From NCBI GenBank assembly GCA_016219705.1, contig JACRKQ010000053.1:6793-70792 (forward strand): 64,000 bases of DNA, written 5' to 3'. Of this stretch, positions 4,404-63,856 are shown piece by piece (the stretch's first letter is position 1; each line of letters begins with the position of its first letter). The DNA comes from Candidatus Saganbacteria bacterium. GTDB taxonomy: Bacteria; Margulisbacteria; WOR-1; O2-12-FULL-45-9. Both the position numbers and the translations under genes were made by a program. The notes under the pieces are model-generated. The model searched no databases. It saw nothing but the letters and a program-made list of their open reading frames with translations, and had not been told where the DNA came from.

Positions 4404-5414
4404 TTATAGACGCAAGCTGGCAACAGGGGAGAGGGATAATGACGAATGACTAATGACTAATGACGAATTAATGAATTTATAATACCCAGCACAGCCAATC
4501 ATGGCTGCGTTATCAGTACAATATTCAAAGGGAGGAATTATTACTTCCAGCCCTTCTTTCTGACCTCTTTTTTGTAATCGACTCCTTAAGCTGGAATTGG
4601 CCGAGACGCCGCCGGCGAGGGTGACAATTTGGACGTTGCGATCTTTGGCCGCGCGAATGGTTTTCTCTACCAGCGTTTCGACGATGGCTTCCTGAAAACT
4701 AGCGACGAGGTCTGGAACTTGTGAAGCGTGAAGAGTGAGGCGTGAAACGTAATTTACAACCGCTGTTTTGATTCCGCTGAAACTGAAATCGTAACCCTGG
4801 TCCATCATAGGGCGGGGAAATTTGATGGCGGCTGGATTTCCTCTCTTGGCCAACTTATCAATAACCGGTCCGCCGGGATAACCCAAACCCAAAAAACGAG
4901 CGACTTTATCAAACGCTTCTCCCGCCGCATCATCCCGAGTCCGGCCCAGCGTTTCATATTCTCCATGACCTTTGACGAGAATAATCATTGTGTGCCCGCC
5001 GGAGACTAATAAACTAATAAAGGGAAAACTTAGAATTTTAGATTTAGAGTTTAAGAAGTTGGCGTATATGTGTCCTTCAAGATGGTTAACTTCAACCAGC
5101 GGGATTTTTCTTCCCCAGGCAATGGCTTTAGCTGCGCAGAGCCCGACGAGGAGGGAGCCGACCAAGCCTGGGCCATAAGTTACGGCAACGGCATTTATGT
5201 CGCCAAACCCAACGTTGGCTCTTTCCAGCGCTTCTTTAATGACCGGATTGATCACTTCAATATGTTTGCGAGCGGCAACTTCGGGAACAATCCCGCCATA
5301 TTTTTTATGAAATTCAATTTGCGAGGAGATGACGTTGGAAAGAACTTCCTGTCCGTCTCTGACAACGGCGGCGGCGGTTTCGTCACAGGATGTTTCGATG
5401 GCTACTATAAACAC
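4404..5414 (-). CDS. tsaD: tRNA N6-adenosine threonylcarbamoyltransferase
   Basis: Kae1/TsaD motifs (IETSCDETAAAV, SLLVSGGHT, DDAAGEAFDKVAR, AGGVSAN); contains heptamer-repeat-derived segments. Confidence 0.85.
   Translation of the reverse strand: MFIVAIETSCDETAAAVVRDGQEVLSNVISSQIEFHKKYGGIVPEVAARKHIEVINPVIKEALERANVGFGDINAVAVTYGPGLVGSLLVGLCAAKAIAWGRKIPLVEVNHLEGHIYANFLNSKSKILSFPFISLLVSGGHTMIILVKGHGEYETLGRTRDDAAGEAFDKVARFLGLGYPGGPVIDKLAKRGNPAAIKFPRPMMDQGYDFSFSGIKTAVVNYVSRLTLHASQVPDLVASFQEAIVETLVEKTIRAAKDRNVQIVTLAGGVSANSSLRSRLQKRGQKEGLEVIIPPFEYCTDNAAMIGCAGYYKFINSSLVISHSSLSLSPVASLRL
4437..4478. repeat. heptamer array (TAATGAC/GAATGAC)x4 plus degenerate units, 42 nt, encoding the C-terminal tail of tsaD
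   Basis: Direct reading of sequence. Confidence 0.85.
4721..4755. repeat. heptamer array GTGAAGC GTGAAGA GTGAGGC GTGAAAC inside tsaD
   Basis: Direct reading. Confidence 0.8.
5021..5048. repeat. irregular TTAGANT ~7-nt tandem repeat inside tsaD
   Basis: Direct reading. Confidence 0.6.
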
Positions 5415-6478
5415 AGCAGAGGAACCTCCTTTTTGGACAATGACAGTGGTCGGGCATCACGCTGGCCCAGGAAGACGTCGGGGAAGATATCAAGGGGCCA
5501 ACCCAGTTCGTTCAAAGAAAGGGAAAAATAATTAGTGGCATTATAGGCAAAATCGCCGTAGGAATGGTAGGCGTAATGTAAACTGACGCCGGCGTAATGG
5601 AAAGTTGCTCCGTAAGTGAAATTATTGGTCAAGGTCGAGCTCTGCGGGTCCTGGTCGACGCCGGCGCGTAAAGTTAAAAATGGATTAGGCGCAAATTCAA
5701 TTCCGGTATGGATGGTTGTCGATTTGGCTGTTTGCAGACTTACATTGGCGTCGGCCGCGATGGAGAGATCAACCGGCGCATAAACAGCCGCTTTTAATTC
5801 TTCGCCCAAGAGAAAAAACCGGGAGCCGATTTTTATTGAGAGAGGTAGATTTTCTCCCTGGGAATTTGCGATGATTTTACTAGAACTGAAGAGATTTTGG
5901 CCGACAACGCCAAAGCTAAACGGACCAACTCCCTGCTGCAGCAAACCGACGTCCAGGTTCCAGCAGCTGCCGGAGCCGGCGCTGACTTCATAGCCATTCT
6001 GGGTATAATATTTCAAGTTAAGCCCCCAGGAGAAGCGTTCATTAAGACGGCGGCCGAACGAGAGGAAGATAACGCTATCGTTGAAAGAGGTTGTTGATTT
6101 TGGTAAAACGCTGGCCGAATCCCTGATTTCAATTCCTCCGATATTGGCGCCGACATAACCCAGCCCGATGGCGCTCTGCTCGCCGAGAGGATAAACGCCG
6201 CCTAGCAGAGAATAAGTGACATCCTCCATGACATTGGCTGACATTGAGAGGAGTTCAAAAGCGTCGATACCGCCCAATCCAGCTGGATTGCTGAAAATAG
6301 TATCAGCGGATTCTCCGACCGCCACGTATGCTCGTCCCATTCCCAGCGCGCGGGCGCCAACGCCGATGGTGAGAGGATCAAAGGTTGTTTGGGCGGCAAC
6401 AACACTGGGAAGAAATGACAAATGACAAATGACAAATGACAAATGAAGGAATCGCTTCGCGATATTATAATAATTCAT
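5405..6478 (-). CDS. secreted outer-membrane beta-barrel protein, PorV/PorQ/FadL-like
   Basis: N-terminal signal peptide followed by GARALGMGRAYVAVGESADTIFSNPAGLG (FadL/PorV-family N-terminal signature), alternating beta-strand pattern, aromatic C-terminus; family assignment from memory only. Confidence 0.4.
   Translation of the reverse strand: MNYYNIAKRFLHLSFVICHLSFLPSVVAAQTTFDPLTIGVGARALGMGRAYVAVGESADTIFSNPAGLGGIDAFELLSMSANVMEDVTYSLLGGVYPLGEQSAIGLGYVGANIGGIEIRDSASVLPKSTTSFNDSVIFLSFGRRLNERFSWGLNLKYYTQNGYEVSAGSGSCWNLDVGLLQQGVGPFSFGVVGQNLFSSSKIIANSQGENLPLSIKIGSRFFLLGEELKAAVYAPVDLSIAADANVSLQTAKSTTIHTGIEFAPNPFLTLRAGVDQDPQSSTLTNNFTYGATFHYAGVSLHYAYHSYGDFAYNATNYFSLSLNELGWPLDIFPDVFLGQRDARPLSLSKKEVPLLCL
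6413..6452. repeat. (AAATGAC)x4 + AAATGAAGGAAT terminus, antisense within signal-peptide codons of PorV-like gene
   Basis: Direct reading. Confidence 0.9.
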
Positions 6479-6891: not shown

Positions 6892-7581
6892 ATGATTGAT
6901 ATTGCTGCCAATATTGTTGAAGTTCGCCAGCGAGTGGCTGCTGCGGCAAAAAAATCCGGTCGCAATCCGGCCGATATCAAAATCATTGCGGTAACGAAAA
7001 CTGTTCCGGTTGAGATAATCGAACAGGCAGTTGCCGCGGGAATTACTGATCTCGGAGAGAATCGAGTTCAAGAAGCGACTCCTAAAATTGAAACACTCCG
7101 GCCCAAATATTCTAAAATTAATTGGCACATGATTGGTCATTTGCAGAGAAATAAAGTAAAACAGGTTCTCGCGAAATTTGATTTAATTCAATCGCTTGAT
7201 TCTGAACGCTTAGCACAGGAAATCAATCAACAAGCGACGATTCCCGTTTCCGTCCTGGTAGAGGTCAATGTCGGCGGTGAAGCAAGTAAAACGGGGCTGC
7301 CGGTGGCTGAAGTAATTAGTTTTTTGCAAAATCTGCCGGACTTTGCTAATATTAATGTCACCGGGCTAATGACTGTTGCGCCCTGGTTTTCCGATCCAGA
7401 AAAAACACGGCCTTATTTTGCGCAATTGAAACAGTTAAGCGAAAAAATAAAGACATTAAACCTGCCTCATGTTACAATGCAGTATCTTTCTATGGGGATG
7501 AGCGCTGATTTTGTCCCGGCCATAGAAGAAGGATCGAATATGGTCCGTTTGGGCCGCGCAATTTTTGGTAAGAGGAGTTGA
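6892..7581 (+). CDS. yggS: pyridoxal-phosphate homeostasis protein YggS family
   Basis: Alanine-racemase N-terminal-like fold motifs (AVTKTVPVE, DLGENRVQE, HMIGHLQRNK). Confidence 0.8.
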   Translation: MIDIAANIVEVRQRVAAAAKKSGRNPADIKIIAVTKTVPVEIIEQAVAAGITDLGENRVQEATPKIETLRPKYSKINWHMIGHLQRNKVKQVLAKFDLIQSLDSERLAQEINQQATIPVSVLVEVNVGGEASKTGLPVAEVISFLQNLPDFANINVTGLMTVAPWFSDPEKTRPYFAQLKQLSEKIKTLNLPHVTMQYLSMGMSADFVPAIEEGSNMVRLGRAIFGKRS

Positions 7582-13758: not shown

Positions 13759-13798
13759 AAATGACAAATGACAAATTACAAATGACAAATGAAGGAAT
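13759..13798. repeat. AAATGAC AAATGAC AAATTAC AAATGAC + AAATGAAGGAAT in efp-accB spacer
   Basis: Direct reading. Confidence 0.9.
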
Positions 13799-49050: not shown

Positions 49051-49392
49051 ATGTCAAACATTCCTACCGGTCGTCATTACGAAGGTTATCGCGACCAGAA
49101 GAAAATTGAACAAGGTGGGATTGTCCGCTTGTGCGGTTCTTTCCTTCTCGACCACGAAGCAGATATCCTCAATTTGATCAAACACGAAGGCCTGCTCGCC
49201 GCCGAAAAAAACCCACAAAATAAAATCCTCACTTTGGCCAAAATTGACGGCGGAATTGTCGCCGAAACCAGCGACCATCATTTAGCTCTGCGCATTGGGA
49301 AAGCCCTGCTTCACGCCTACAAAGGCGAACACCAATATAAATTTACTAAAGGCGAGAAATTTGTTGAAGTCGATTGGCAGAGGAATGATTAG
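49051..49392 (+). CDS. hypothetical protein (113 aa), no recognisable domain
   Basis: ORF with AGGGG RBS between rpsI and the aminotransferase. Confidence 0.4.
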   Translation: MSNIPTGRHYEGYRDQKKIEQGGIVRLCGSFLLDHEADILNLIKHEGLLAAEKNPQNKILTLAKIDGGIVAETSDHHLALRIGKALLHAYKGEHQYKFTKGEKFVEVDWQRND

Positions 49393-49407: not shown

Positions 49408-50556
49408 ATGGCAAGAAAAATGATTAAGTACAGTTTGATGATCCCCGGTCCAACCCCCATTCCCACTCGCGTTTTATCAGCCATGAACCATGACATGATC
49501 GGCCATCGCGGGCCTCTGTTTTCGGCCGTGATGAAGGAAGTCATGGAGCTGTTGCGCTGGGCTTACGATACTAAGAATGAAATTTTTATTTATCCCTCTT
49601 CGGGAACAGGCGGGATGGAGGTAGCAGTCGTCAATACGCTTTCTCCCGGAGACAAAGTTATTGTTTTGAATATCGGTAATTTTGGCTCCCGCTTTGTGAA
49701 AATCTGCAAAGCTTACGGTGTTGATGTTAACGACGTGAAATTTGAACGAGGCAAACCAGCCGATCCTGCGGTCTTGGAGGCTGAATTGAAAAAAGGTCCG
49801 GTCAAAGCTGTTCTCTTTCAGCAAAATGAGACCTCAACCGGAGTGCTAAATGATGTCGAAACGTTAGCTAAAACGGTTAGAAAAAATCAGCTTGATGCGT
49901 TGGTTATTGTCGACGCGGTCTCCGGTATGATGGCGGCGCCTTTGAAAACTGATGAGTGGGATCTTGACGTTGTTGTTTCCGGTTCACAGAAGGCTTTTAT
50001 GGTCCCACCTGGAGTTTCAGCTGTTTCCATTTCTGCCCGGGCCTGGAAAGCGCACGCAAGTTCCAAATGTCCAAAACATTATTGGGACTGGGCTTTGATG
50101 AAAGAAGAAGCGCCCAAAGGTCACACGTATACCACGCCGCCGGAATCGCTGATCTTTGGCATGCGGGAAGGTTTGCGGATGTTGAAAGAAGAGGGGAAAG
50201 AGAATGTTTTTGCCCGTCATAAATTCAATCGTGATCTCTGCCGGACCGCGGCGAAAGCTTTGGGTTTAAAACTCTTAGCTGATGATGCCCATGCCTCACC
50301 GGCCGTGACGGCGATTTCTCCGCCTGCAGGCATTGATGGCGAAGAAGTCCGTAAATTAATGCGGGAAGATTTTAACGTTGAAGTAGCGCCCGGCCAGGGA
50401 GAACTGAAAAGTAAAATTTTTAGAATCGGCCACCTTGGATACGTTGATTCTTTGGACATTATTGGCGCTTTTGCGGCTTTAGAAGTTTTGTTCAAGCGTT
50501 TAGGGGCGAAGACTGACTTCGGCGCGGGCGTCAAAGCGGCGATGGAAATGCTTTAG
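49408..50556 (+). CDS. class V aminotransferase (serine-glyoxylate / phosphoserine aminotransferase-like)
   Basis: PLP-lysine motif SGSQKAFMVPPG, fold type I class V pattern; serA nearby. Confidence 0.7.
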   Translation: MARKMIKYSLMIPGPTPIPTRVLSAMNHDMIGHRGPLFSAVMKEVMELLRWAYDTKNEIFIYPSSGTGGMEVAVVNTLSPGDKVIVLNIGNFGSRFVKICKAYGVDVNDVKFERGKPADPAVLEAELKKGPVKAVLFQQNETSTGVLNDVETLAKTVRKNQLDALVIVDAVSGMMAAPLKTDEWDLDVVVSGSQKAFMVPPGVSAVSISARAWKAHASSKCPKHYWDWALMKEEAPKGHTYTTPPESLIFGMREGLRMLKEEGKENVFARHKFNRDLCRTAAKALGLKLLADDAHASPAVTAISPPAGIDGEEVRKLMREDFNVEVAPGQGELKSKIFRIGHLGYVDSLDIIGAFAALEVLFKRLGAKTDFGAGVKAAMEML

Positions 50557-50557
50557 T

Positions 50558-50597
50558 GAATGACTAATTCCTAATGCCTAATGTCTAATGAAGGAAT
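50558..50597. repeat. GAATGAC TAATTCC TAATGCC TAATGTC + TAATGAAGGAAT filling spacer upstream of truA
   Basis: Direct reading. Confidence 0.9.
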
Positions 50598-51364
50598 TGC
50601 TTCACGATGTTATCTTATTTATTCAATACGATGGGACCAACTTTGCCGGTTTTGAATTGCAACCTGGCCAGCGCACCATTCGCGGAGAACTGGAAAAAAC
50701 CCTGGCCAAAGTTTACCAACAAAAAATATCAATTATTTCTGCTGCTCGGACTGATGCTGGGGCGCATGCTTTAGAAAATGTGGTCAGCTTTAAGGCCAAA
50801 AATAGTATTCCGCTTGATAAAATACCTACAGTGTTAAATACTGTTCTCCCACGGACCATCAGAATTATCAAGGCTGAAAAAAACAATGGTCATGTCCGCC
50901 ATGATGCTAAAACAAAAATTTACGAATACTTAATCTTTAATGGGGAAAACCTTCCGCCGCAGTTAAATCATCTGGTCTGGCAGGTCGGGCTCCCGCTTAA
51001 TCTCACGGCGATGAAAAGAGCGGCAAGATATCTAGTTGGCAAACACGATTTTTCTTCGTTTTGCGCGGCCCATTCAGATGATAAGGACTTTGTCAAAAAA
51101 ATACATTCATTTGACATTTGTTCCGCCTTAGGCGGATCATTTGTCATTTGGGGTGGAGTGAAGTATCGTTTGATCAGAATCCGCGTGACCGGCGACGGTT
51201 TTTTGTACAAGATGGTCAGAAACATTGTCGGAACTTTAGTTTGTGTTGGCTTAGGAAAGTTGACTGTGGCTGATGTCAAAGGGATCCTGGAAGCTAAAGA
51301 TCGCCAAAAAGCGGGTAGAACTGCGCCGGCACAGGGGTTGTGCTTGGTGAAGATTCGCTATTAA
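50588..51364 (+). CDS. truA: tRNA pseudouridine(38-40) synthase
   Basis: IQYDGTNFAGFELQ, RTDAGAHAL catalytic Asp motif; start ATG lies inside the heptamer-array terminus. Confidence 0.85.
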   Translation: MKELLHDVILFIQYDGTNFAGFELQPGQRTIRGELEKTLAKVYQQKISIISAARTDAGAHALENVVSFKAKNSIPLDKIPTVLNTVLPRTIRIIKAEKNNGHVRHDAKTKIYEYLIFNGENLPPQLNHLVWQVGLPLNLTAMKRAARYLVGKHDFSSFCAAHSDDKDFVKKIHSFDICSALGGSFVIWGGVKYRLIRIRVTGDGFLYKMVRNIVGTLVCVGLGKLTVADVKGILEAKDRQKAGRTAPAQGLCLVKIRY

Positions 51365-51401
51365 CGCTTATTAATGAAGATGGTATAATTAAAAGAAGAT
51401 C

Positions 51402-52169
51402 ATGCCCCATCTATCAGAATTATTCAAAGAAATCGACCGCAAAAAGGCCTTGATCGACCAGGCCAGGCCGTTGCCTGCCATCATCCTGGATAAACTGACC
51501 GAATACCTCGATATCGAATGGACTTACAATAGCAATGCGATTGAAGGGAACACGATGACCCGCCAGGAGACGATGTTAATCTTAAAAGAAGGCTTAACCA
51601 TCTCTGGAAAAAGCATGCGGGAACATCTGGAGGTTACTAACCACAAAAATGCGATTGATTACCTGGCGGAGCTTTTGACTAAAGTTGAGCCGATTACCCA
51701 AAAAGATGTAAAACGTATTCACTTTTTAGTTTTAGAAGGAATTAATAATGAAAACGCGGGGAAATATCGGAGCGTTGAAGTATATATATCTGGTACAACT
51801 TATTTGCCTCCAAAACCAGCTGAAGTGCCAGAATTAATGCTCGATTTTTCCAAATGGCTTGTGGAGCGACAAGAACTGCAAGATTTACATCCGGTTAAAT
51901 TAGCGGCAGAGGCCCATTATAAGTTTGTGACAATTCATCCTTTTATCGATGGCAATGGCCGGACAGCGAGGCTTCTAATGAATTTGATTCTGATGAAATA
52001 TGGTTATCCGATCGCGGTTTTAGAATGTGAAACAGATAAAAGAAAACGATATTATCAGGCGATCCGAACAGGGCATACGGGAGATTTGTTTCCATTCGAA
52101 ATTTTAATTGCTGAATATGTAAATTTAACTGCTGATAAATTTGTCGGCTCGATTCCAAAAGGGGGATAA
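51402..52169 (+). CDS. Fic-family protein, class II (N-terminal inhibitory helix SNAIEG) - paralog 1
   Basis: HPFIDGNGRTARLL Fic motif; (S/T)xxxE(G/N) inhibitory motif at residues ~43-48. Confidence 0.8.
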   Translation: MPHLSELFKEIDRKKALIDQARPLPAIILDKLTEYLDIEWTYNSNAIEGNTMTRQETMLILKEGLTISGKSMREHLEVTNHKNAIDYLAELLTKVEPITQKDVKRIHFLVLEGINNENAGKYRSVEVYISGTTYLPPKPAEVPELMLDFSKWLVERQELQDLHPVKLAAEAHYKFVTIHPFIDGNGRTARLLMNLILMKYGYPIAVLECETDKRKRYYQAIRTGHTGDLFPFEILIAEYVNLTADKFVGSIPKGG

Positions 52170-52173
52170 TTGA

Positions 52174-52302
52174 AGCAGTAATCGTTATTTTATTTCCCGC
52201 CGCGGCAAGGTGGAAGCGGTGATTGTCAGCTCTGAAGAATTTGAAAGCTGGGGAGAAATCTTGCCGCCGCAGGGGTTGTGCTGGATGAAAGTGGAGTATT
52301 AA
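52174..52302 (+). pseudogene. start-less chimeric remnant: middle of phd-like antitoxin fused in frame to a truA 3'-end-like segment
   Basis: 52183-52256 is ~90% identical to phd 53950-54025. 52259-52302 resembles truA 51320-51364. Reads RYFISRRGKVEAVIVSSEEFESWGEILPPQGLCWMKVEY* with no start codon. Confidence 0.6.
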
Positions 52303-52303
52303 A

Positions 52304-52621
52304 TTATTTCAATTTAATACCAGTTTTTTTTATTTCATCGACAAATAAATTTTTTTGTGTAAAATCACCGGATGTAAACGGATGAATTTCAATAAGGTTT
52401 GATGTTTTACTTAAATACGGGATCAGCATTTTTGAATCATAAAATCTGATGCCGGTAAATTTAGATGAAACCAACGCCAAATCGATGTCACTTTCAGTTG
52501 TTGGCTGACCTTTGGCGTAGGATCCAAATAAATAAGCTTGCTTGATAGGAATATTTTTATTAAGCTGCCCAATTAAAAATTTCAGTTTTTTAATTATATT
52601 TTTATTTCTTTTAAAAGCCAT
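52304..52621 (-). CDS. minimal nucleotidyltransferase (MNT, antitoxin of HEPN/MNT module)
   Basis: GSYAKGQPTTESDIDLALV = GSxxxG...DxD NTase motif; ~30% GC. Confidence 0.7.
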   Translation of the reverse strand: MAFKRNKNIIKKLKFLIGQLNKNIPIKQAYLFGSYAKGQPTTESDIDLALVSSKFTGIRFYDSKMLIPYLSKTSNLIEIHPFTSGDFTQKNLFVDEIKKTGIKLK

Positions 52622-52995
52622 TTATATAAATCCTTTATTTTGGAAAAATAAATTTCTGTAAATTTTCTGGTGCAAAGCTTATAAAATTGAAATTTGTTGT
52701 CCGGATATCTGGCCTCTAAGTTGAAATCATTGATTTCTTTAAGAAAATTTATCGTTTCAACTGGCAAGCTTAATTTTGTTTTCTCTGCTAAATAATCTAA
52801 TTTGTGGATTTTTGGTGGGAAAGCGTTATTATCCCTGACATAATAAGCTTTGAGAACTTTTTCTATTACGAGATGAGCTAAAAATAGACACCAGTCATAA
52901 TGTTGGCTTGTGAATAAAGCTTCTGCTGTTTCTAAATCATGATGGGCTGATTTTAGCCAGTATTCTATCTGCTCTTTAATACTTTTAGCGAACAT
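52594..52995 (-). CDS. HEPN-domain protein (toxin partner of MNT)
   Basis: Pfam HEPN-like pattern (...QAVEKaLKA..., KIHKLDYL, EARYPD), overlaps MNT gene by 28 nt. Confidence 0.65.
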   Translation of the reverse strand: MFAKSIKEQIEYWLKSAHHDLETAEALFTSQHYDWCLFLAHLVIEKVLKAYYVRDNNAFPPKIHKLDYLAEKTKLSLPVETINFLKEINDFNLEARYPDNKFQFYKLCTRKFTEIYFSKIKDLYKWLLKEIKI

Positions 52996-53047
52996 GTTTA
53001 TATATTATACATTATTAATAATTTGATGTAAAATAAGGAATTATATC

Positions 53048-53815
53048 ATGCCCAATCTATCAGAACTGCTTAAAGAAATCGACCGCAAAAAGGCCTTAAT
53101 TGATCAGGCGAGGCCGCTGCCGAAAATTATTGTCGACAAGCTGTCGGAATATTTTACGGTTGAGTGGACTTATACGAGTAATGCGATAGAAGGGAACACT
53201 CTGGACCGGGCGGAAACTCTGGCTGTCTTAAAAGACGGTGCGACCATTGGTGGCAAGTCTTTAAAAGAGCATTTAGAGGCCATTAATCATAAAGCGGCCA
53301 TTACCTACATTAATGAAATATTTACTAAGGTTGAGCCGATTACGCAAAACGATATCAAATATCTCCACTCCTTGATTTTACGGGGGATCAATGACCGCTA
53401 CGCCGGACATTATCGGGATGTTGACGTTATTATTGTCGGCGCCAAACATATCCCTCCGCTGCCCGATAAAGTTCCCGCACTGATGAATGATTTTTCCCTG
53501 TGGCTGGTGGACCGACAGGAGACAAGAGATCTGCACCCTGTGGAATTTGCGGTGCTGGCACATTATCAGCTGGTCAATATTCATCCTTTTATTGACGGCA
53601 ACGGCAGAACATCCCGCTTGTTGATGAATCTGATTTTAATGAAATATGGTTATCCCATTGCTATTATTGATTGTGAAAAGGAGCCGCGGACTATTTATTA
53701 TCATGCCATAAGAAAAGCTGATGATGGCGACAATGTGCCGTTTAAAATTCTTGTTGCTGAATACGTTAACAAAACGGCGGATATTTATGTCGGCTCGATT
53801 CCAAAAAGGGGATAA
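53048..53815 (+). CDS. Fic-family protein, class II - paralog 2
   Basis: HPFIDGNGRTSRLL and TSNAIEGN motifs; ~60% aa identity to paralog 1 with near-identical termini. Confidence 0.8.
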   Translation: MPNLSELLKEIDRKKALIDQARPLPKIIVDKLSEYFTVEWTYTSNAIEGNTLDRAETLAVLKDGATIGGKSLKEHLEAINHKAAITYINEIFTKVEPITQNDIKYLHSLILRGINDRYAGHYRDVDVIIVGAKHIPPLPDKVPALMNDFSLWLVDRQETRDLHPVEFAVLAHYQLVNIHPFIDGNGRTSRLLMNLILMKYGYPIAIIDCEKEPRTIYYHAIRKADDGDNVPFKILVAEYVNKTADIYVGSIPKRG

Positions 53816-53836
53816 TTTGAACTTTACAGATTGTAC

Positions 53837-53856
53837 ATAATATCGTACAATTAAAA
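53837..53856. promoter_or_regulatory. inverted repeat TTGTAC-n8-GTACAA upstream of phd/relE
   Basis: Direct reading. Confidence 0.35.
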
Positions 53857-53869
53857 AAAAGGGTGGGGT

Positions 53870-54145
53870 ATGAAAAAAAATGAAACAACTATTCCTGTGA
53901 GCGAAGCGCGCCAGAAACTCCCGGAGCTGGTGGACAACGTTAGAAAGCTGCATAACCGTTATTTTATTTCCCGCCGCGGCAAGGTAGAGGCGGTGATTGT
54001 CAGTTCTGAAGAATTTGAAAGCTGGGGGGAAACGCTGGACATTGTCGCCAATCGGGCGGAGATGAAGGCCATGGCCCGGGCTTTTGCCGACATTAAAAAA
54101 GGCCGGGTAAAATATTTTGAAGATATATTTGGAGACAAGGCCTGA
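53870..54145 (+). CDS. Phd/YefM-family antitoxin
   Basis: IPVSEARQKLPELVD...VIVSSEEFESW pattern. Confidence 0.7.
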   Translation: MKKNETTIPVSEARQKLPELVDNVRKLHNRYFISRRGKVEAVIVSSEEFESWGETLDIVANRAEMKAMARAFADIKKGRVKYFEDIFGDKA

Positions 54146-54396
54146 TGACGCGCGAGGTGCTTTTTACCCGCGAAGCGAAAAAAAATCTAAAAAAATTGCC
54201 AAATCATGTTCTGGAAAAGGTTAAAACAGCGGTTTTGGAGATCAGAGAAAATTCCTTATCAGGCAAGCCGCTTAGAGGCATTTTAAAAGGGCAATATTCT
54301 TTTCGCATTGGCGACTATCGCATCGTTTATTTATTGTCAGGCAGAAACCAGATTTACATTCTTTACGTCCGCCATCGTCGCGATGCGTATAAGTAA
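54145..54396 (+). CDS. RelE/ParE-family toxin
   Basis: 83 aa, YRIVYLLSGRNQIYILYVRHRRDAY C-terminal pattern; start overlaps phd stop. Confidence 0.7.
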   Translation: MTREVLFTREAKKNLKKLPNHVLEKVKTAVLEIRENSLSGKPLRGILKGQYSFRIGDYRIVYLLSGRNQIYILYVRHRRDAYK

Positions 54397-54427
54397 AAAA
54401 TATCATTAGAAAGGATGTGTTAAAGAT

Positions 54428-56008
54428 ATGAAAGTCCTAGCTTCTGACAAAATTGATGAAAGTGGTTTGAAGATGCTCCGTGACGCTGGTATTGAGGCCG
54501 ACATGAAGATTGGATTGCCGGAAGAAGAATTGGTCAAAATTATTCCGCAATATGACGCCTTAATCGTCCGCTCTGATACCAAAGTTACGCCAAAAATCAT
54601 TGAAGCCGGAAAAAAATTACAAATTATCGGACGGGCCGGCGTTGGCGTTGACAACGTCGATTTACCGACGGCGACCAAAAACGGCGTGATCGTCGTCAAT
54701 TCTCCAGAGGGAAACACCGTTGCCGCCGCGGAACATTCCTTTGCGATGCTGCTGGCGATGGCCAGACAAATTCCACAGGCCCACGGAAAATTGAAAACCG
54801 GCGTCTGGGACAAAAAGAGCTTCAAAGGAGTCGAAGTCTTGAACAAAGTTCTGGGTGTGGTCGGTTTAGGGAAAATTGGCCGCCGCGTGGCTTCGTATGC
54901 TCTGGGTATGGGGATGAAGGTTCTTGCTTACGATCCCTTTGTGACCGAAGAATATGCCAAGTCACTTGGAGTCGAATTAAAACCGCTTGATCAAGTTCTT
55001 AACCAGGCTAATTTTGTAACTTTTCACATTCCCAAGACCAAAGAGACTGCCAATTTGATTAACAAAGCAACTTTGGCCAAGATGAAAAAAGGTGTTCGCT
55101 TGATCAACGTTGCCCGCGGAGGAATTATCAATGAGGCTGATCTGTGTGAAGCGTTAAAAAGCGGCCAAGTTGCGGCGGCGGCGCTTGATGTTTTTGAAAA
55201 AGAGCCTTTGTCTGCGGACAGTCCATTATTAAATTTGGATAATATAGTTGTTACTCCGCACCTTGGCGCTTCGACCGTTGAAGCTCAAGTCAATGTGGCC
55301 ATTGATGTGGTCGAGCAGATTATTGATGTTCTGCAGGGTGGGGTGGCCCGTTCGGCGGTAAACATTCCTTCGATGAAACCGGAATTGATCGCTCCGGTCC
55401 GGCCCTTTATGGGGATTACGGAAAAATTGGGAACTTTAGCGGCCCAGTTAGTCCCGGGGGCGGTTTCTAAAGTCAGTGTTGAATACAGCGGCGAAATTGC
55501 GGAGAAAGAGATCTCGCCGCTGACGACAACGCTGCTTAAGGGTTTGCTAACCCCAATGATGGATGTCGTCGTTAATTTTGTCAACGCGCCATTGATCGCC
55601 AAAGAACGCGGGATAGAAATTACGGAGACTAAAAATTGCGAGGCCCGTGATTTCGCAAATTTAATCAAAGTAAAAGTGGTCTCCGCCCAGGGGAGCCGCG
55701 AAGTCGGCGGTACAGTTTTTGTTGGGGTGGGAGATCGCCTGGTTTTGATCGACGGCTACCGTGTTGACGCCGATCCCAGCGGTTATTTATTAATAATTTC
55801 CAATATTGATAAGCCGGGGATGATTGGTAAAGTTGGGACTTGTTTGGGGCAGCATGGTATAAACATTGCTTCCATGGATGTCGGGCGGCTTACAGTCAAT
55901 GAAAAAGCAGTTATGGTTCTCAATGTAGATAATACTGTCTCTGATACTGTCATAAAAGATTTAACGGCGATTGATGGGATTGCCGGGGCGACGCTGGTAA
56001 AACTTTAA
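54428..56008 (+). CDS. serA: D-3-phosphoglycerate dehydrogenase
   Basis: 2-hydroxyacid DH fold (GLGKIGRRVA), C-terminal ACT domain, 526 aa. Confidence 0.85.
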   Translation: MKVLASDKIDESGLKMLRDAGIEADMKIGLPEEELVKIIPQYDALIVRSDTKVTPKIIEAGKKLQIIGRAGVGVDNVDLPTATKNGVIVVNSPEGNTVAAAEHSFAMLLAMARQIPQAHGKLKTGVWDKKSFKGVEVLNKVLGVVGLGKIGRRVASYALGMGMKVLAYDPFVTEEYAKSLGVELKPLDQVLNQANFVTFHIPKTKETANLINKATLAKMKKGVRLINVARGGIINEADLCEALKSGQVAAAALDVFEKEPLSADSPLLNLDNIVVTPHLGASTVEAQVNVAIDVVEQIIDVLQGGVARSAVNIPSMKPELIAPVRPFMGITEKLGTLAAQLVPGAVSKVSVEYSGEIAEKEISPLTTTLLKGLLTPMMDVVVNFVNAPLIAKERGIEITETKNCEARDFANLIKVKVVSAQGSREVGGTVFVGVGDRLVLIDGYRVDADPSGYLLIISNIDKPGMIGKVGTCLGQHGINIASMDVGRLTVNEKAVMVLNVDNTVSDTVIKDLTAIDGIAGATLVKL

Positions 56009-59058: not shown

Positions 59059-61923
59059 CTGGAGTACAAACAAACCCTCAATCTGCCCCAGACCGCTTTT
59101 CCCATCCGCGCTAATTTGCAAAAAATTGAAGCGGATTTGCTGGCGCATTGGGAAAATCTTGACCTCTATCAGCAAATTCAAGCCAAGAATAAAACAGCCG
59201 CTAAAAAATTTGTTTTGCATGACGGCCCCCCTTATCCTAATGGCGATATTCACCTTGGCCATGCTTTGAATAAAATCATCAAAGATATCATTATTAAATA
59301 TAAATCGATGCAGGGCTTTGCCTCTCCCTATATCCCCGGTTGGGACTGTCACGGTTTGCCGATCGAAACACAGCTGATCAAGCAGTTGACAGATGAAGAG
59401 CGCAAAAAATATAAAGAGCCGAATAAAAAAGTTGAGTTTAGGAATAGGTGTAAAGAATATGCCTTAAAATATGTTGACTTGCAGCGCCAGGAGTTTAAAC
59501 GCCTGGGAGCGCTTGGCGACTGGGAAAACCCATATTTAACGATTGATCCTCTATATGAAGCCGACATAATTCGCCTCTTTGGGGATTTGGCCGAAAAAGG
59601 TTATGTTTATCGCGGCTTAAAACCGATTCACTGGTGTCCGCATTGCGAAACGGCATTGGCGGAAGCGGAATTGGAATATGAGGAGGATAAGTCGCCGTCA
59701 ATCTACGTCAAATTCGAAATCCGAAATCCGAAATCAGAAATAAATTCCAAAATTAAAAATCCAAACTTGCCAACTGATTTGCCCTGGTTTTTTGTCGTTT
59801 GGACGACGACGCCGTGGACTCTGCCAGCGAACATGGCGATTGCAGCGCATGCGGAATACGAGTACGTATTTATTAATGTCAAATGTCAAATGACAAATGA
59901 CAAATATCGGAATGAAATTTATATTGTTGCCGAAGGTTTGCTGGAAGATTTTGTAAAAAGAGTCGGGATTACAGATTATCAAATCATTGATAAGACCAAA
60001 GGGGAATATTTAGAAGGCGTTGTCGCTAAACATCCCTTTATTGATTGCGACGTTATGCTCGTCTTGGATGAATATGTCACCCTGGAGCAGGGGACGGGCT
60101 TGGTACATATTGCTCCAGGACACGGAATTGAAGATTATAAAGTTGGTCTAAAATATAAATTGTTCCCCATTGTCATGCCGGTTACGGCTGATGGGCGCTT
60201 TGACGAAACGGTCCCGGAATTTATCCGCGGTGAATTTTATAAGAAAGCGAATGACTTAATTATTGAGCAACTCAAAAATGGAGGAAGTTTTCTCAGGTTA
60301 GAGAACATAAAACATTCTTTCCCTCATTGCTGGCGCTGTAAGAATCCCGTTATTTTTCGGGCAACCGAGCAGTGGTTTGTTTCTGTTGATCATCTTGGAA
60401 TGCGCGAGAAGGCATTGAAGGCCATTATTGATACAAAGTGGTATCCGGCTTGGGGAGAAAATCGGATTCGCGGGATGGTAGAAACCCGTCCGGATTGGTG
60501 TATCTCTCGTCAGAGAACCTGGGGGGTGCCGATTCCGGTTTTTTATTGTGATAAATGTCACCAGCCGTCAATGACCGGAATTTTTAATGAATCAATCCGC
60601 AAAATTGTTTTAGAACGGGGGACGAATGGTTGGTTTGATTTGTCAGCCAAGGAGATTTTGCCGTCGGGAACAAAATGTTCAAAATGCGACGGCGATTCTT
60701 TTACTAAAGAAACCGATATTCTCGATGTCTGGTTTGAATCAGGCTCGTCTCACGCGCTGCTGGAGCGCTTGCCGGATCATCATTGGCCGGCGGACTTATA
60801 TCTTGAGGGTTCTGATCAGCATCGCGGTTGGTTTCAAAGTTCTTTATTGATTGCTGTGGGATATAAAGGGAGGGCGCCGTTTAATTCTGTCCTGACTCAT
60901 GGCTTTACCATTGATGATAAGGGAAAAAAGATGAGCAAATCCCTGGGCAATGTCATCGGTCCGCAAGAGGTGGTTAAAGAATATGGAGCGGATGTTTTGC
61001 GTCTCTGGGTTGCGTCGACAGATTTTCGCAACGATATGGCGGCGTCAAAGAATATTCTAGTTCAGGTCAGAGAGGCCTATTCAAAAATTCGCAATACCTG
61101 CCGTTTTTTAATCAGTAATTTATATGATTTTACCCCCTCCTCCGACGTGCGTCGGAGTCTCCCCCTTGAAAAGGGGGAGAATGAGAGGGGGTTGCTTGAA
61201 CTTGACCGTTGGATACTTTTGCGCTTGAATCGATTAATTGAGAGGATAATCCAATCTTACGACGAATATGAACTGCACGTTGTTTATCACGCTCTTTATG
61301 AATTTTGTGTAAACGATCTCTCGGCTCATTATCTCGATATGTCCAAAGATCGGCTGTATTGCGACGGTAAAAGTTCGCCAGAGCGACGCTCGGCCCAATT
61401 TGCGATGTGGGAGATATTGTTTGCCTTAGTTGGAATGATGGCCCCTGTTCTCTCCTTTACGGCGGAAGACATCGGGCGGCATATGGCGGCAATGACTAAT
61501 GACAAATGCCTAATGCCTAATGAAGGCAGTATCTTTTTATCAAACTTCCCTAAAATTAAGGAAGAATATTTAGATAAAGAGTTAGAAGCTCGCTGGGAAA
61601 AGATTATGGTTTTGCGAGCGGAAGTTTATAAAGTGTTGGAAGAGAAGCGGGCCAATAAAATTATTTCGGCTTCGATTGAAGCCGTTGTGGAGATTGGCTT
61701 GCAGGGTCGGGAATGGCTGAAAGCTGTTGATCCCAAAATTCTCCCGATGGTTTTAATTGTTTCCCAAGTCAAATTGGTCGACGGAGATAAAATCGCAGTA
61801 AGTAAGGCGTCTGATCAAAAATGCGGCCGTTGCTGGATGTTGCTCCCGACGGTGGGGAAGAGCCATCAACATCCGGATTTGTGTGAGCGTTGTGAAAAGG
61901 TTGTCAGGGAATTGACAGGGTAA
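59059..61923 (+). CDS. ileS: isoleucine--tRNA ligase (probable CTG start; the ORF track begins at TTG 59116)
   Basis: HLGHALNK (HIGH), KMSKS, C-terminal zinc finger CGRCW...CERC; conserved N-terminus EYKQTLNLPQTAFP is encoded upstream of the called start. Confidence 0.85.
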   Translation: MEYKQTLNLPQTAFPIRANLQKIEADLLAHWENLDLYQQIQAKNKTAAKKFVLHDGPPYPNGDIHLGHALNKIIKDIIIKYKSMQGFASPYIPGWDCHGLPIETQLIKQLTDEERKKYKEPNKKVEFRNRCKEYALKYVDLQRQEFKRLGALGDWENPYLTIDPLYEADIIRLFGDLAEKGYVYRGLKPIHWCPHCETALAEAELEYEEDKSPSIYVKFEIRNPKSEINSKIKNPNLPTDLPWFFVVWTTTPWTLPANMAIAAHAEYEYVFINVKCQMTNDKYRNEIYIVAEGLLEDFVKRVGITDYQIIDKTKGEYLEGVVAKHPFIDCDVMLVLDEYVTLEQGTGLVHIAPGHGIEDYKVGLKYKLFPIVMPVTADGRFDETVPEFIRGEFYKKANDLIIEQLKNGGSFLRLENIKHSFPHCWRCKNPVIFRATEQWFVSVDHLGMREKALKAIIDTKWYPAWGENRIRGMVETRPDWCISRQRTWGVPIPVFYCDKCHQPSMTGIFNESIRKIVLERGTNGWFDLSAKEILPSGTKCSKCDGDSFTKETDILDVWFESGSSHALLERLPDHHWPADLYLEGSDQHRGWFQSSLLIAVGYKGRAPFNSVLTHGFTIDDKGKKMSKSLGNVIGPQEVVKEYGADVLRLWVASTDFRNDMAASKNILVQVREAYSKIRNTCRFLISNLYDFTPSSDVRRSLPLEKGENERGLLELDRWILLRLNRLIERIIQSYDEYELHVVYHALYEFCVNDLSAHYLDMSKDRLYCDGKSSPERRSAQFAMWEILFALVGMMAPVLSFTAEDIGRHMAAMTNDKCLMPNEGSIFLSNFPKIKEEYLDKELEARWEKIMVLRAEVYKVLEEKRANKIISASIEAVVEIGLQGREWLKAVDPKILPMVLIVSQVKLVDGDKIAVSKASDQKCGRCWMLLPTVGKSHQHPDLCERCEKVVRELTG
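59715..59749. repeat. (CGAAATC)x3 plus degenerate units inside ileS
   Basis: Direct reading. Confidence 0.85.
59874..59915. repeat. TAATGTC AAATGTC AAATGAC AAATGAC AAATATC GGAATGA, 42 nt in-frame in ileS
   Basis: Direct reading. Confidence 0.9.
61133..61191. repeat. 59-nt GC-rich nested palindromic element inside ileS: outer stem CCCCCTC/GAGGGGG enclosing two perfect hairpins
   Basis: Inner hairpins: CTCCGACG-tg-CGTCGGAG (61140-61157) and TCTCCCCC-TTGAAAA-GGGGGAGA (61158-61180). Confidence 0.8.
61490..61526. repeat. CAATGAC TAATGAC AAATGCC TAATGCC TAATGAAGG in ileS
   Basis: Direct reading. Confidence 0.85.
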
Positions 61924-63814: not shown

Positions 63815-63856
63815 AAATGACAAATGCCAAATTACAAATGACAAATGAAGGAAGAA
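63815..63856. repeat. AAATGAC AAATGCC AAATTAC AAATGAC + AAATGAAGGAAG downstream of ahcY
   Basis: Direct reading. Confidence 0.9.

Follow-up and report, generated by a model that had tools for sequence, protein, structure and literature searches.

In a 64,000-nucleotide (nt) stretch of a contig from a Candidatus Saganbacteria metagenome-assembled genome (MAG; contig JACRKQ010000053.1, positions 6,793 to 70,792 of the forward strand, sequencing run SRR12113407), hereafter the window, two Fic genes named Fic1 and Fic2 lie between the genes truA and serA, together with remnants of a second truA and a second phd, an HEPN/MNT gene pair and a phd-relE gene pair. By comparing this region with related loci, we found that a Fic gene is a fixed, syntenic resident of the core cluster to which truA and serA belong, and that this gene comes in an A type and a B type, both ancient, of which one or the other takes the same position, discordantly with the trees of the flanking genes. 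Our preferred reading, to which we assign a probability of roughly 0.6, is that the resident A-type module gained a B-type module (truA'-FicB), together with its cassettes, as a neighbour, after which redundant parts decayed. The region is a record of genome rearrangement and not a new kind of system; nothing in it is mechanistically new, since all four gene families are well known.

The related loci were recovered from Saganbacteria and Margulisbacteria by homology searches with each Fic protein (n = 24), and the entire aminotransferase-to-serA interval is visible in 10 of them. Every one of the 24 carries a single FICD-like class II Fic gene within one common cluster, ordered as ribosomal genes, rpsI, a gene of ~110 amino acids (aa), a class-V aminotransferase gene, truA and Fic in either order, serA and a patatin gene. 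As a single Fic gene sits in the same cluster in 24/24 related loci, it is not accessory cargo, and the accessory island described in the initial annotation shrinks to the segment that is additional with respect to locus L085, the nearest A-type relative. Homology to L085 continues up to the Fic1 stop codon and begins again at the serA start, the serA gene of L085 beginning 10 nt after Fic; therefore, positions 52170-54424 represent inserted sequence. In L170, the nearest B-type relative, the order is truA, a 37-nt spacer, FicB and serA; compared with it, the HEPN/MNT pair is an insertion in the truA'-Fic spacer, and phd-relE (~53822-54423) is a further insertion that separates Fic from serA. 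Further, the order truA-Fic or Fic-truA flips within both A and B types, even between the sister loci L171 and L087. A profile search of genome contigs with the Fic alignment yielded, among the matches listed, only distant Fic proteins (<=55% identity) and no Saganbacteria locus.

The separation of the two types is sharp. Proteins of the A set are 70-93% identical to Fic1 and ~60-67% identical to Fic2, and those of the B set are 77-89% identical to Fic2 and ~62-66% identical to Fic1. Trees were constructed by neighbour-joining from single genes, with bootstrap, and the A/B split received 100% bootstrap in the Fic tree; Fic1 was sister to L085 (100% bootstrap, 93% aa identity), and Fic2 was sister to L170 (94% bootstrap, 89% aa identity) inside a B clade with 100% bootstrap. 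Among the window and the 24 related loci, both types occur together in the window only. The flanking genes follow different trees: in that of serA, with 98-100% support, the A-type loci L091, L171 and L087 group with the B-type loci L164 and L168, and L086 (A) groups with L166 (B), while in the truA tree L084 (B) groups with L093 (A) at 100%. The synonymous divergence (dS) between Fic1 and Fic2 is 3.4, i.e., saturated, and that between Fic1 and its L085 counterpart is 1.07, similar to the 1.41 obtained for serA against L085. Both Fic genes are under strong purifying selection, as deduced from ratios of nonsynonymous to synonymous divergence (dN/dS) of 0.03 for Fic1 vs L085 and 0.01 for Fic2 vs L170. 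Thirteen residues separate the A from the B types; most of these changes are conservative and concentrated in residues 43-116, and they do not point to any difference in function between the types.

The history of the region is recorded in two gene fragments located between Fic1 and the HEPN/MNT pair, which were delimited by a repeat search and self-BLAST within a stretch that is non-coding in the map of open reading frames (ORFs; 52170-52303). The first is a plus-strand remnant of a second phd (52179-52264; codons ~29-55, with no start codon), recognized by its repeat match to phd: its segment 52179-52258 is identical to the intact phd (53953-54032) at 75/80 nt (blastn E 3e-29), including a 29-nt exact run, the five differences (5/5) being synonymous third-position changes that leave the 26 translated amino acids identical. 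The second is a plus-strand remnant of a second truA (52265-52302; the last 12 codons and the stop codon), recognized by its repeat match to the truA end: the segment 52263-52302 agrees with the resident truA (51325-51364) at 30/40 nt, and with the truA end of L086 at 35/40. The in-frame translation of this truA' piece, PPQGLCWMKVEY up to the stop codon, fits the C-terminal consensus APAQGLCL[IV]KVxY, likewise followed by a stop codon, of the truA genes of 17 relatives, with radical changes at sites that are invariant in 17/17 of these genes (GLCL to GLCW, and A/G to P). The Fic genes themselves align over 773 nt at 67% identity. The proportions of differing positions are therefore 5/80 for phd, 10/40 for the truA end and 255/768 for Fic, with Fisher p values of 0.0066 and 4e-8, and the scars are of unequal age. 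All differences in the phd piece being synonymous, this copy acquired them while it still functioned, and its truncation is recent; we estimate at ~0.01 the chance of observing 5/5 synonymous differences had the piece been non-functional from its origin on. In the truA' piece, function was lost earlier than in the phd piece.

The copy that follows Fic1 also lacks ~128 nt that are present after Fic2 (53818-53952) and that contain codons 1 to 27 of phd as well as its promoter-like site and a palindrome; side-by-side comparison of the flanks places the deletion joint directly after Fic1 (52170-52178). Directly 3' of Fic1, the flank TAATTGAA is like its Fic2 counterpart, TAATTTGAA, and unlike that of L085, and the last ~30 nt of the Fic1 and Fic2 genes are nearly identical, a pattern that points to probable recombination at the Fic 3' end. 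In the initial annotation, the truA 3' end and the phd middle were each said to be present twice and a deletion of ~125 nt was proposed, and all of this is borne out by the self-comparison. The same annotation attributed the copies to a single tandem segmental duplication, which implies copies of equal age and a phd piece that was non-functional from the outset, and these elements conflict with the divergences given above. As a separate observation, the phd piece and the truA' end are in the same frame, making a 31-aa ORF possible from a GTG at 52210 to the truA' stop codon (52210-52302); a phd-truA' fusion protein was considered and rejected, as it displays no convincing start or ribosome-binding site and is probably not expressed.

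According to the reading that we favor, the B module (truA'-FicB) would have been placed beside truA-Fic1 rather than replacing the A module, carrying a foreign, low-GC HEPN-MNT pair in its spacer and the Phd-RelE cassette behind its Fic gene. The redundant truA' would have been deleted first, leaving 38-40 nt; later, one of two functional Phd-RelE copies would have been deleted as well, leaving 80 nt after two deletions, a loss that a second near-identical antitoxin would allow to occur without cell death. The two modules may have come together by uptake from a different lineage or by unequal strain-to-strain exchange, or they may be an ancient tandem pair of which other genomes have lost members. 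The layout, the family assignments, the synteny, the A/B split with its discordance from the flanking-gene trees and the unequal scar ages are shown by the data, and we infer the direction and order of these events, as well as the horizontal origin of the B module. Several points weigh against this history. Among the relatives, none turned up in which Phd-RelE follows Fic, and the database holds no phd above 72% identity that could be its source; the order of events is not fixable from one genome, and the 40 nt of the truA' piece are too short to assign a donor. Furthermore, the relatives are known from metagenomic contigs, of which many are short, and a second Fic gene elsewhere in those genomes is possible; the join of Fic1 to the phd piece (52181/52183) is carried by the MAG contig alone, and the trees are single-gene and neighbour-joining.

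The initially proposed in-situ tandem duplication, in which a segment spanning the truA 3' end, Fic, the spacer and the phd middle would have been copied, followed by divergence, the ~125-nt deletion and the HEPN/MNT insertion, would account for the end-to-start junction at which the phd middle meets the truA end (~52264/52265), for the co-linear, same-orientation copies and for the likeness of the immediate 3' flanks of Fic1 and Fic2. We nevertheless regard it as improbable, and as a single event it is rejected because the Fic dS is saturated, each Fic gene is closer to genes of other genomes than to its neighbour (93% and 89% vs 67% aa identity) and the scars are unequal in age. To this are added the solely synonymous differences of the phd piece, which would be unexpected had it been truncated at birth, and the lack of a second copy in the closest relative, L085. 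A distinct possibility is that the two Fic genes are ancient tandem paralogs, the class ancestor having carried truA-FicA-truA-FicB with one copy lost in nearly every lineage and the window being a rare survivor. The interspersion of A and B on the serA and truA trees and the old truA' remnant speak for it, as do the flips of truA/Fic order in both types, even in the sisters L171 and L087, which duplication and loss would give; however, the single Fic gene in 24/24 loci would need many independent losses, L085 included, the phd scar is young, and no duplication scars are present at the other loci, where self-BLAST of the 24 related loci returned no scars like those of the window, just two short repeats of which one is a heptamer array. 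We therefore hold this explanation to be unlikely. A Campbell-type integration of a circular element (from the truA' end to the phd middle) at the Fic 3' end was also rejected: after such an event the flank would be of A type and no complete phd-relE would follow Fic2, at odds with the window.

Finally, the arrangement could result from an assembly artefact in which the contig joins two strains, one with truA-Fic1 and the other with truA'-HEPN/MNT-Fic2-phd-relE. The metagenomic origin of the contig makes this conceivable, and the Logan contigs of the same run (L001, corresponding to 51120-52181, and L002, corresponding to 52183-53982) end at 52181/52183 and at 53982, adjacent to the 29 nt over which the phd copies agree exactly. 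On the other hand, L002 independently spans the phd piece fused to the truA' end, MNT, HEPN, Fic2 and the phd 5' end, and therefore the truncated pieces exist in the reads; moreover, there is nothing to provoke a false join, as no k-mer is common to the Fic1 flank or the phd middle and the truA end. The 1-nt gap at 52182 coincides with a mismatch site (T vs C in phd), and together with the break at 53982 it would fit a T/C polymorphism in a k = 31 graph. We consider an assembly artefact very improbable.

Regarding the proteins themselves, Fic1 and Fic2 are both 255 aa long and align without gaps at 67% identity. As the initial annotation indicated, both are class II Fic proteins: SNAIEG is found at residues 44-49 and HPFIDGNGRT at residues 179-188 in each of them, in columns that are invariant in an alignment of 27 sequences. 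The Fic core HxFx(D/E)GNGRxxR is present at residues 179-190, as HPFIDGNGRTAR in Fic1 and HPFIDGNGRTSR in Fic2, and the inhibitory motif (S/T)xxxE(G/N) belongs to the same chain, on the N-terminal side of the core; in Fic1, the inhibitory Glu48 is encoded at 51543-51545 and the catalytic His179 at 51936-51938. Among solved structures, human FICD is the top match of Fic1 (219 residues aligned, E 6e-43), with near-identical active-site loops, SNAIEGN aligning with the TVAIEGN of FICD, which holds Glu234. FICD, BtFic and CdFic are listed with the inhibitory glutamate at the N-terminus, and deAMPylation has been shown for FICD and EfFIC (PMC6408439). Judging from homology, Fic1 and Fic2 are most likely self-inhibited AMP transferases acting on a cellular protein, with deAMPylation possible.

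They are not toxins paired with an antitoxin. The inhibitory motif is internal, and their neighbours are truA, serA, HEPN and phd, with no separate antitoxin as in class I FicTA pairs; the resemblance to the defence gene SoFic is partial, with only positions 61-267 of the 361 in the PADLOC model matched (E 3e-37), which correspond to the Fic domain and not to the region C-terminal to it, and 44 bits against a cut-off of 550 for the NCBIfam SoFic model. The designation of the locus as a toxin hotspot is consequently unsuited to the class II Fic proteins, which are self-inhibited and have no antitoxin partner, and the HEPN protein also departs from the canonical Rx4-6H motif.

The initially proposed gene order agrees with the ORF coordinates and the sequence: on the plus strand truA, Fic1, the phd piece, the truA-end piece, MNT and HEPN (both on the minus strand), Fic2, phd and relE; serA comes next. 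Likewise, the assignments to the Fic, HEPN, MNT and Phd/RelE families were sustained by a profile search, the Pfam matches of all domain assignments exceeding the gathering score. The conserved left anchor is the class-V aminotransferase gene (49408-50556, plus strand; Pfam Aminotran_5, 8e-27), with 84-89% identity in most relatives, followed by the resident truA (50588-51364, plus strand), which encodes a tRNA pseudouridine(38-40) synthase (Pfam PseudoU_synth_1, 2e-42; NCBIfam TIGR00071, 191 bits against a cut-off of 142.85). A promoter-like site, TTAACG-17-TATAAT with TG, found by consensus scan only, precedes Fic1 (51361-51389, plus strand). The A-type Fic1 (51402-52169, plus strand; Pfam Fic, 2.7e-24) and the B-type Fic2 (53048-53815, plus strand; Pfam Fic, 4.8e-23) enclose the remnants and the minus-strand pair, and serA (54428-56008, plus strand), assigned by Pfam as D-3-phosphoglycerate dehydrogenase with 91.7% aa identity to L085, constitutes the conserved right anchor.

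The region had also been described as directly attached to the ribosomal superoperon. It is not directly joined to it, because a 113-aa ORF and the aminotransferase gene separate truA from rpsI. The 113-aa ORF (49051-49392), located between rpsI and the aminotransferase gene, is kept across the lineage, with 56-62% identity in L086, L091, L095 and L165 and a gene of 106-109 aa at the equivalent position in L166 and L172; it has no Pfam match in relatives.

The HEPN/MNT pair is the only part of the region with a low GC content, 27-32% against 38-50% in the surroundings, and it displays the top match of the promoter consensus scan (TTTACA-17-TATAAT, 11/12; 53004-53032, minus strand). Given this base composition, its own strong promoter-like site and its absence from the truA-Fic spacer of L170, the earlier description of the pair as an inserted cassette is upheld. 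The HEPN gene (52594-52995, minus strand; 133 aa; Pfam HEPN PF05168, 7.7e-22) lies 5' of the MNT gene (52304-52621, minus strand; 105 aa; Pfam Polbeta 4e-11, NTP_transf_2 3e-9) with a 28-nt overlap. The MNT protein carries the motif LFGSYAKG...SDIDLAL (GS...DID), and it is adjacent to, and overlaps with, a HEPN gene as is typical for such pairs; it scored 39 bits with the NCBIfam MntA model, below the cut-off of 60, and matched weakly the MntA structure 5yep in PDB. The HEPN protein is of the PF05168 (HEPN-T) type, its nearest PDB matches being TT1696 and TM0613. In place of the RNase motif Rx4-6H it has RYPDNK, against RYPDAH in TT1696, and an upstream histidine (PPKIHKLDYL) aligns with the GHSI histidine of TT1696; alternative histidines have been proposed to serve in HEPN-T proteins (PMC3710099). 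MNT almost always precedes HEPN in such pairs (PMC3710099), and here HEPN (52995 to 52594) precedes MNT (52621 to 52304). Because RYPDNK replaces Rx4H and the HEPN gene comes first, we consider HEPN only a putative toxin.

The Phd-RelE pair is a standard type II toxin-antitoxin (TA) cassette and a true insertion. The antitoxin gene phd, of the Phd/YefM family (53870-54145, plus strand; 91 aa), precedes relE (54145-54396, plus strand; 83 aa), a toxin gene of the RelE/ParE superfamily, with a 1-nt stop/start overlap. Both family models exceed their thresholds, PhdYeFM with 56.6 bits against a cut-off of 29.8 (2e-15) and ParE_toxin with 55.8 against 23 (7e-15), as expected for coupled genes of this kind with the antitoxin first; TIGR01552 gave 39 bits against 20.8 for the antitoxin. 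The RelE_StbE model reached 27.6 bits against a cut-off of 27.9, and the Pfam ParE_toxin model spans the RelE and ParE subfamilies. Upstream of phd, a promoter-like site (53823-53851, plus strand) was recognized by consensus scan and direct reading of the sequence, and the palindrome inside it, ATTGTAC (53830-36)/GTACAAT (53845-51), is a likely operator.

Other cargo occupies corresponding spacers in the relatives. L168 has a 255-aa ORF between truA and FicB, and the aminotransferase-Fic spacer of the B-type locus L163 (1200-5945) holds two opposite-strand genes, one for an AAA_14/DUF4143 ATPase and the other for a 1190-aa protein that combines HEAT repeats, DUF58 and a transglutaminase-like core. 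An antitoxin and RelE-like pair is common to L166 (2971-3539, directly upstream of truA-FicB) and L092 (15-431, upstream of FicA-truA), with 70% and 66% aa identity between the two loci and only 31-35% identity to the RelE of the window.

Short tandem heptamer arrays of ~4.4-4.9 copies (31-34 nt) with the consensus AAATGAC or AATGMCT, all on the plus strand, were observed along the window at 4438-4468, 6413-6446, 13759-13792, 50559-50590, 59875-59905, 61491-61523 and 63815-63848, and also at 59710-59741. Several of them lie in short spacers between co-directional genes, and that at 50559-50590 fills the aminotransferase-truA spacer, with the truA start codon in its last unit. Arrays are also found directly after the aminotransferase stop codon in the relatives L165 (5091-5125, AATGACC x4-5) and L086 (4180-4215, AAAATCN x4-5), and L165 has in addition an inverted array copy inside truA (7295-7331). 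Margulisbacteria are relatives of Cyanobacteria, and the arrays of the window resemble the short tandemly repeated repetitive (STRR) heptamers of cyanobacteria.

A bacterial FICD-like Fic protein that is fixed in a housekeeping cluster across a whole candidate phylum argues for a cellular regulatory role over a toxin role, and the Fic proteins of the window constitute a simple bacterial relative of human FICD for study. The swapping of two ancient types at one locus, independently of its neighbours, is a pattern that usually signals selection for diversity. We can only speculate that A and B represent a long-lived polymorphism across Saganbacteria/Margulisbacteria, kept by selection and exchanged by recombination, the window being a rare genome with both types and an intermediate of the duplication-loss cycles that flip the truA/Fic order; we find this idea rather doubtful at present. 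The reason for such a polymorphism may be different targets, or a conflict with phages or other elements. As we read them, the dated scars show the trimming of redundant parts from an added module, a process that could explain changes in the order of adjacent genes.

Compared with known systems, Fic1 and Fic2 are akin to FICD/HYPE, BtFic (3CUC) and CdFic (4X2E) in the HPFxDGNGRxxR core and in the N-terminal inhibitory (S/T)xxxE(G/N) helix of the same chain. Unlike FICD/HYPE, these proteins of 255 aa have neither a membrane anchor nor a tetratricopeptide repeat (TPR) region, the alignment to FICD constructs beginning at query residue 29, too early in the chain for either to fit; and unlike all three, they reside in a housekeeping cluster beside truA and serA, where two ancient types are exchanged at one locus. 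With VbhT/VbhA (FicT/FicA, class I) they share the Fic catalytic domain and a glutamate-bearing inhibitory helix, but the helix of that system comes from a separate small antitoxin, whereas in the window it lies within Fic itself and there is no adjoining partner gene.

The HEPN/MNT cassette resembles the type VII TA system HepT/MntA (PMC7641770, PMC3710099) as an overlapping pair of MNT (GS...DxD) and HEPN genes that is mobile and of foreign base composition. It differs from it in that its HEPN protein belongs to PF05168 (HEPN-T) and not to DUF86, in the H to K replacement within RYPDNK, and in an MNT protein that scores below the MntA cut-off. As in other type II Phd/YefM-RelE/ParE systems, the antitoxin gene precedes the toxin gene with a 1-nt overlap, and a palindrome lies in the promoter-like region; the antitoxin of the window differs in its distance, as the database holds no near-identical phd and its closest relatives there are 65-72% identical. 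Lastly, the locus shares with xenologous in-situ gene displacement and core-gene integration hotspots the divergent versions that occupy one slot, the independence from flanking genes and the variable cargo of the spacers; unlike in such displacement, the newcomer in the window appears to have been placed beside the resident, and the clean-up has left dated scars.

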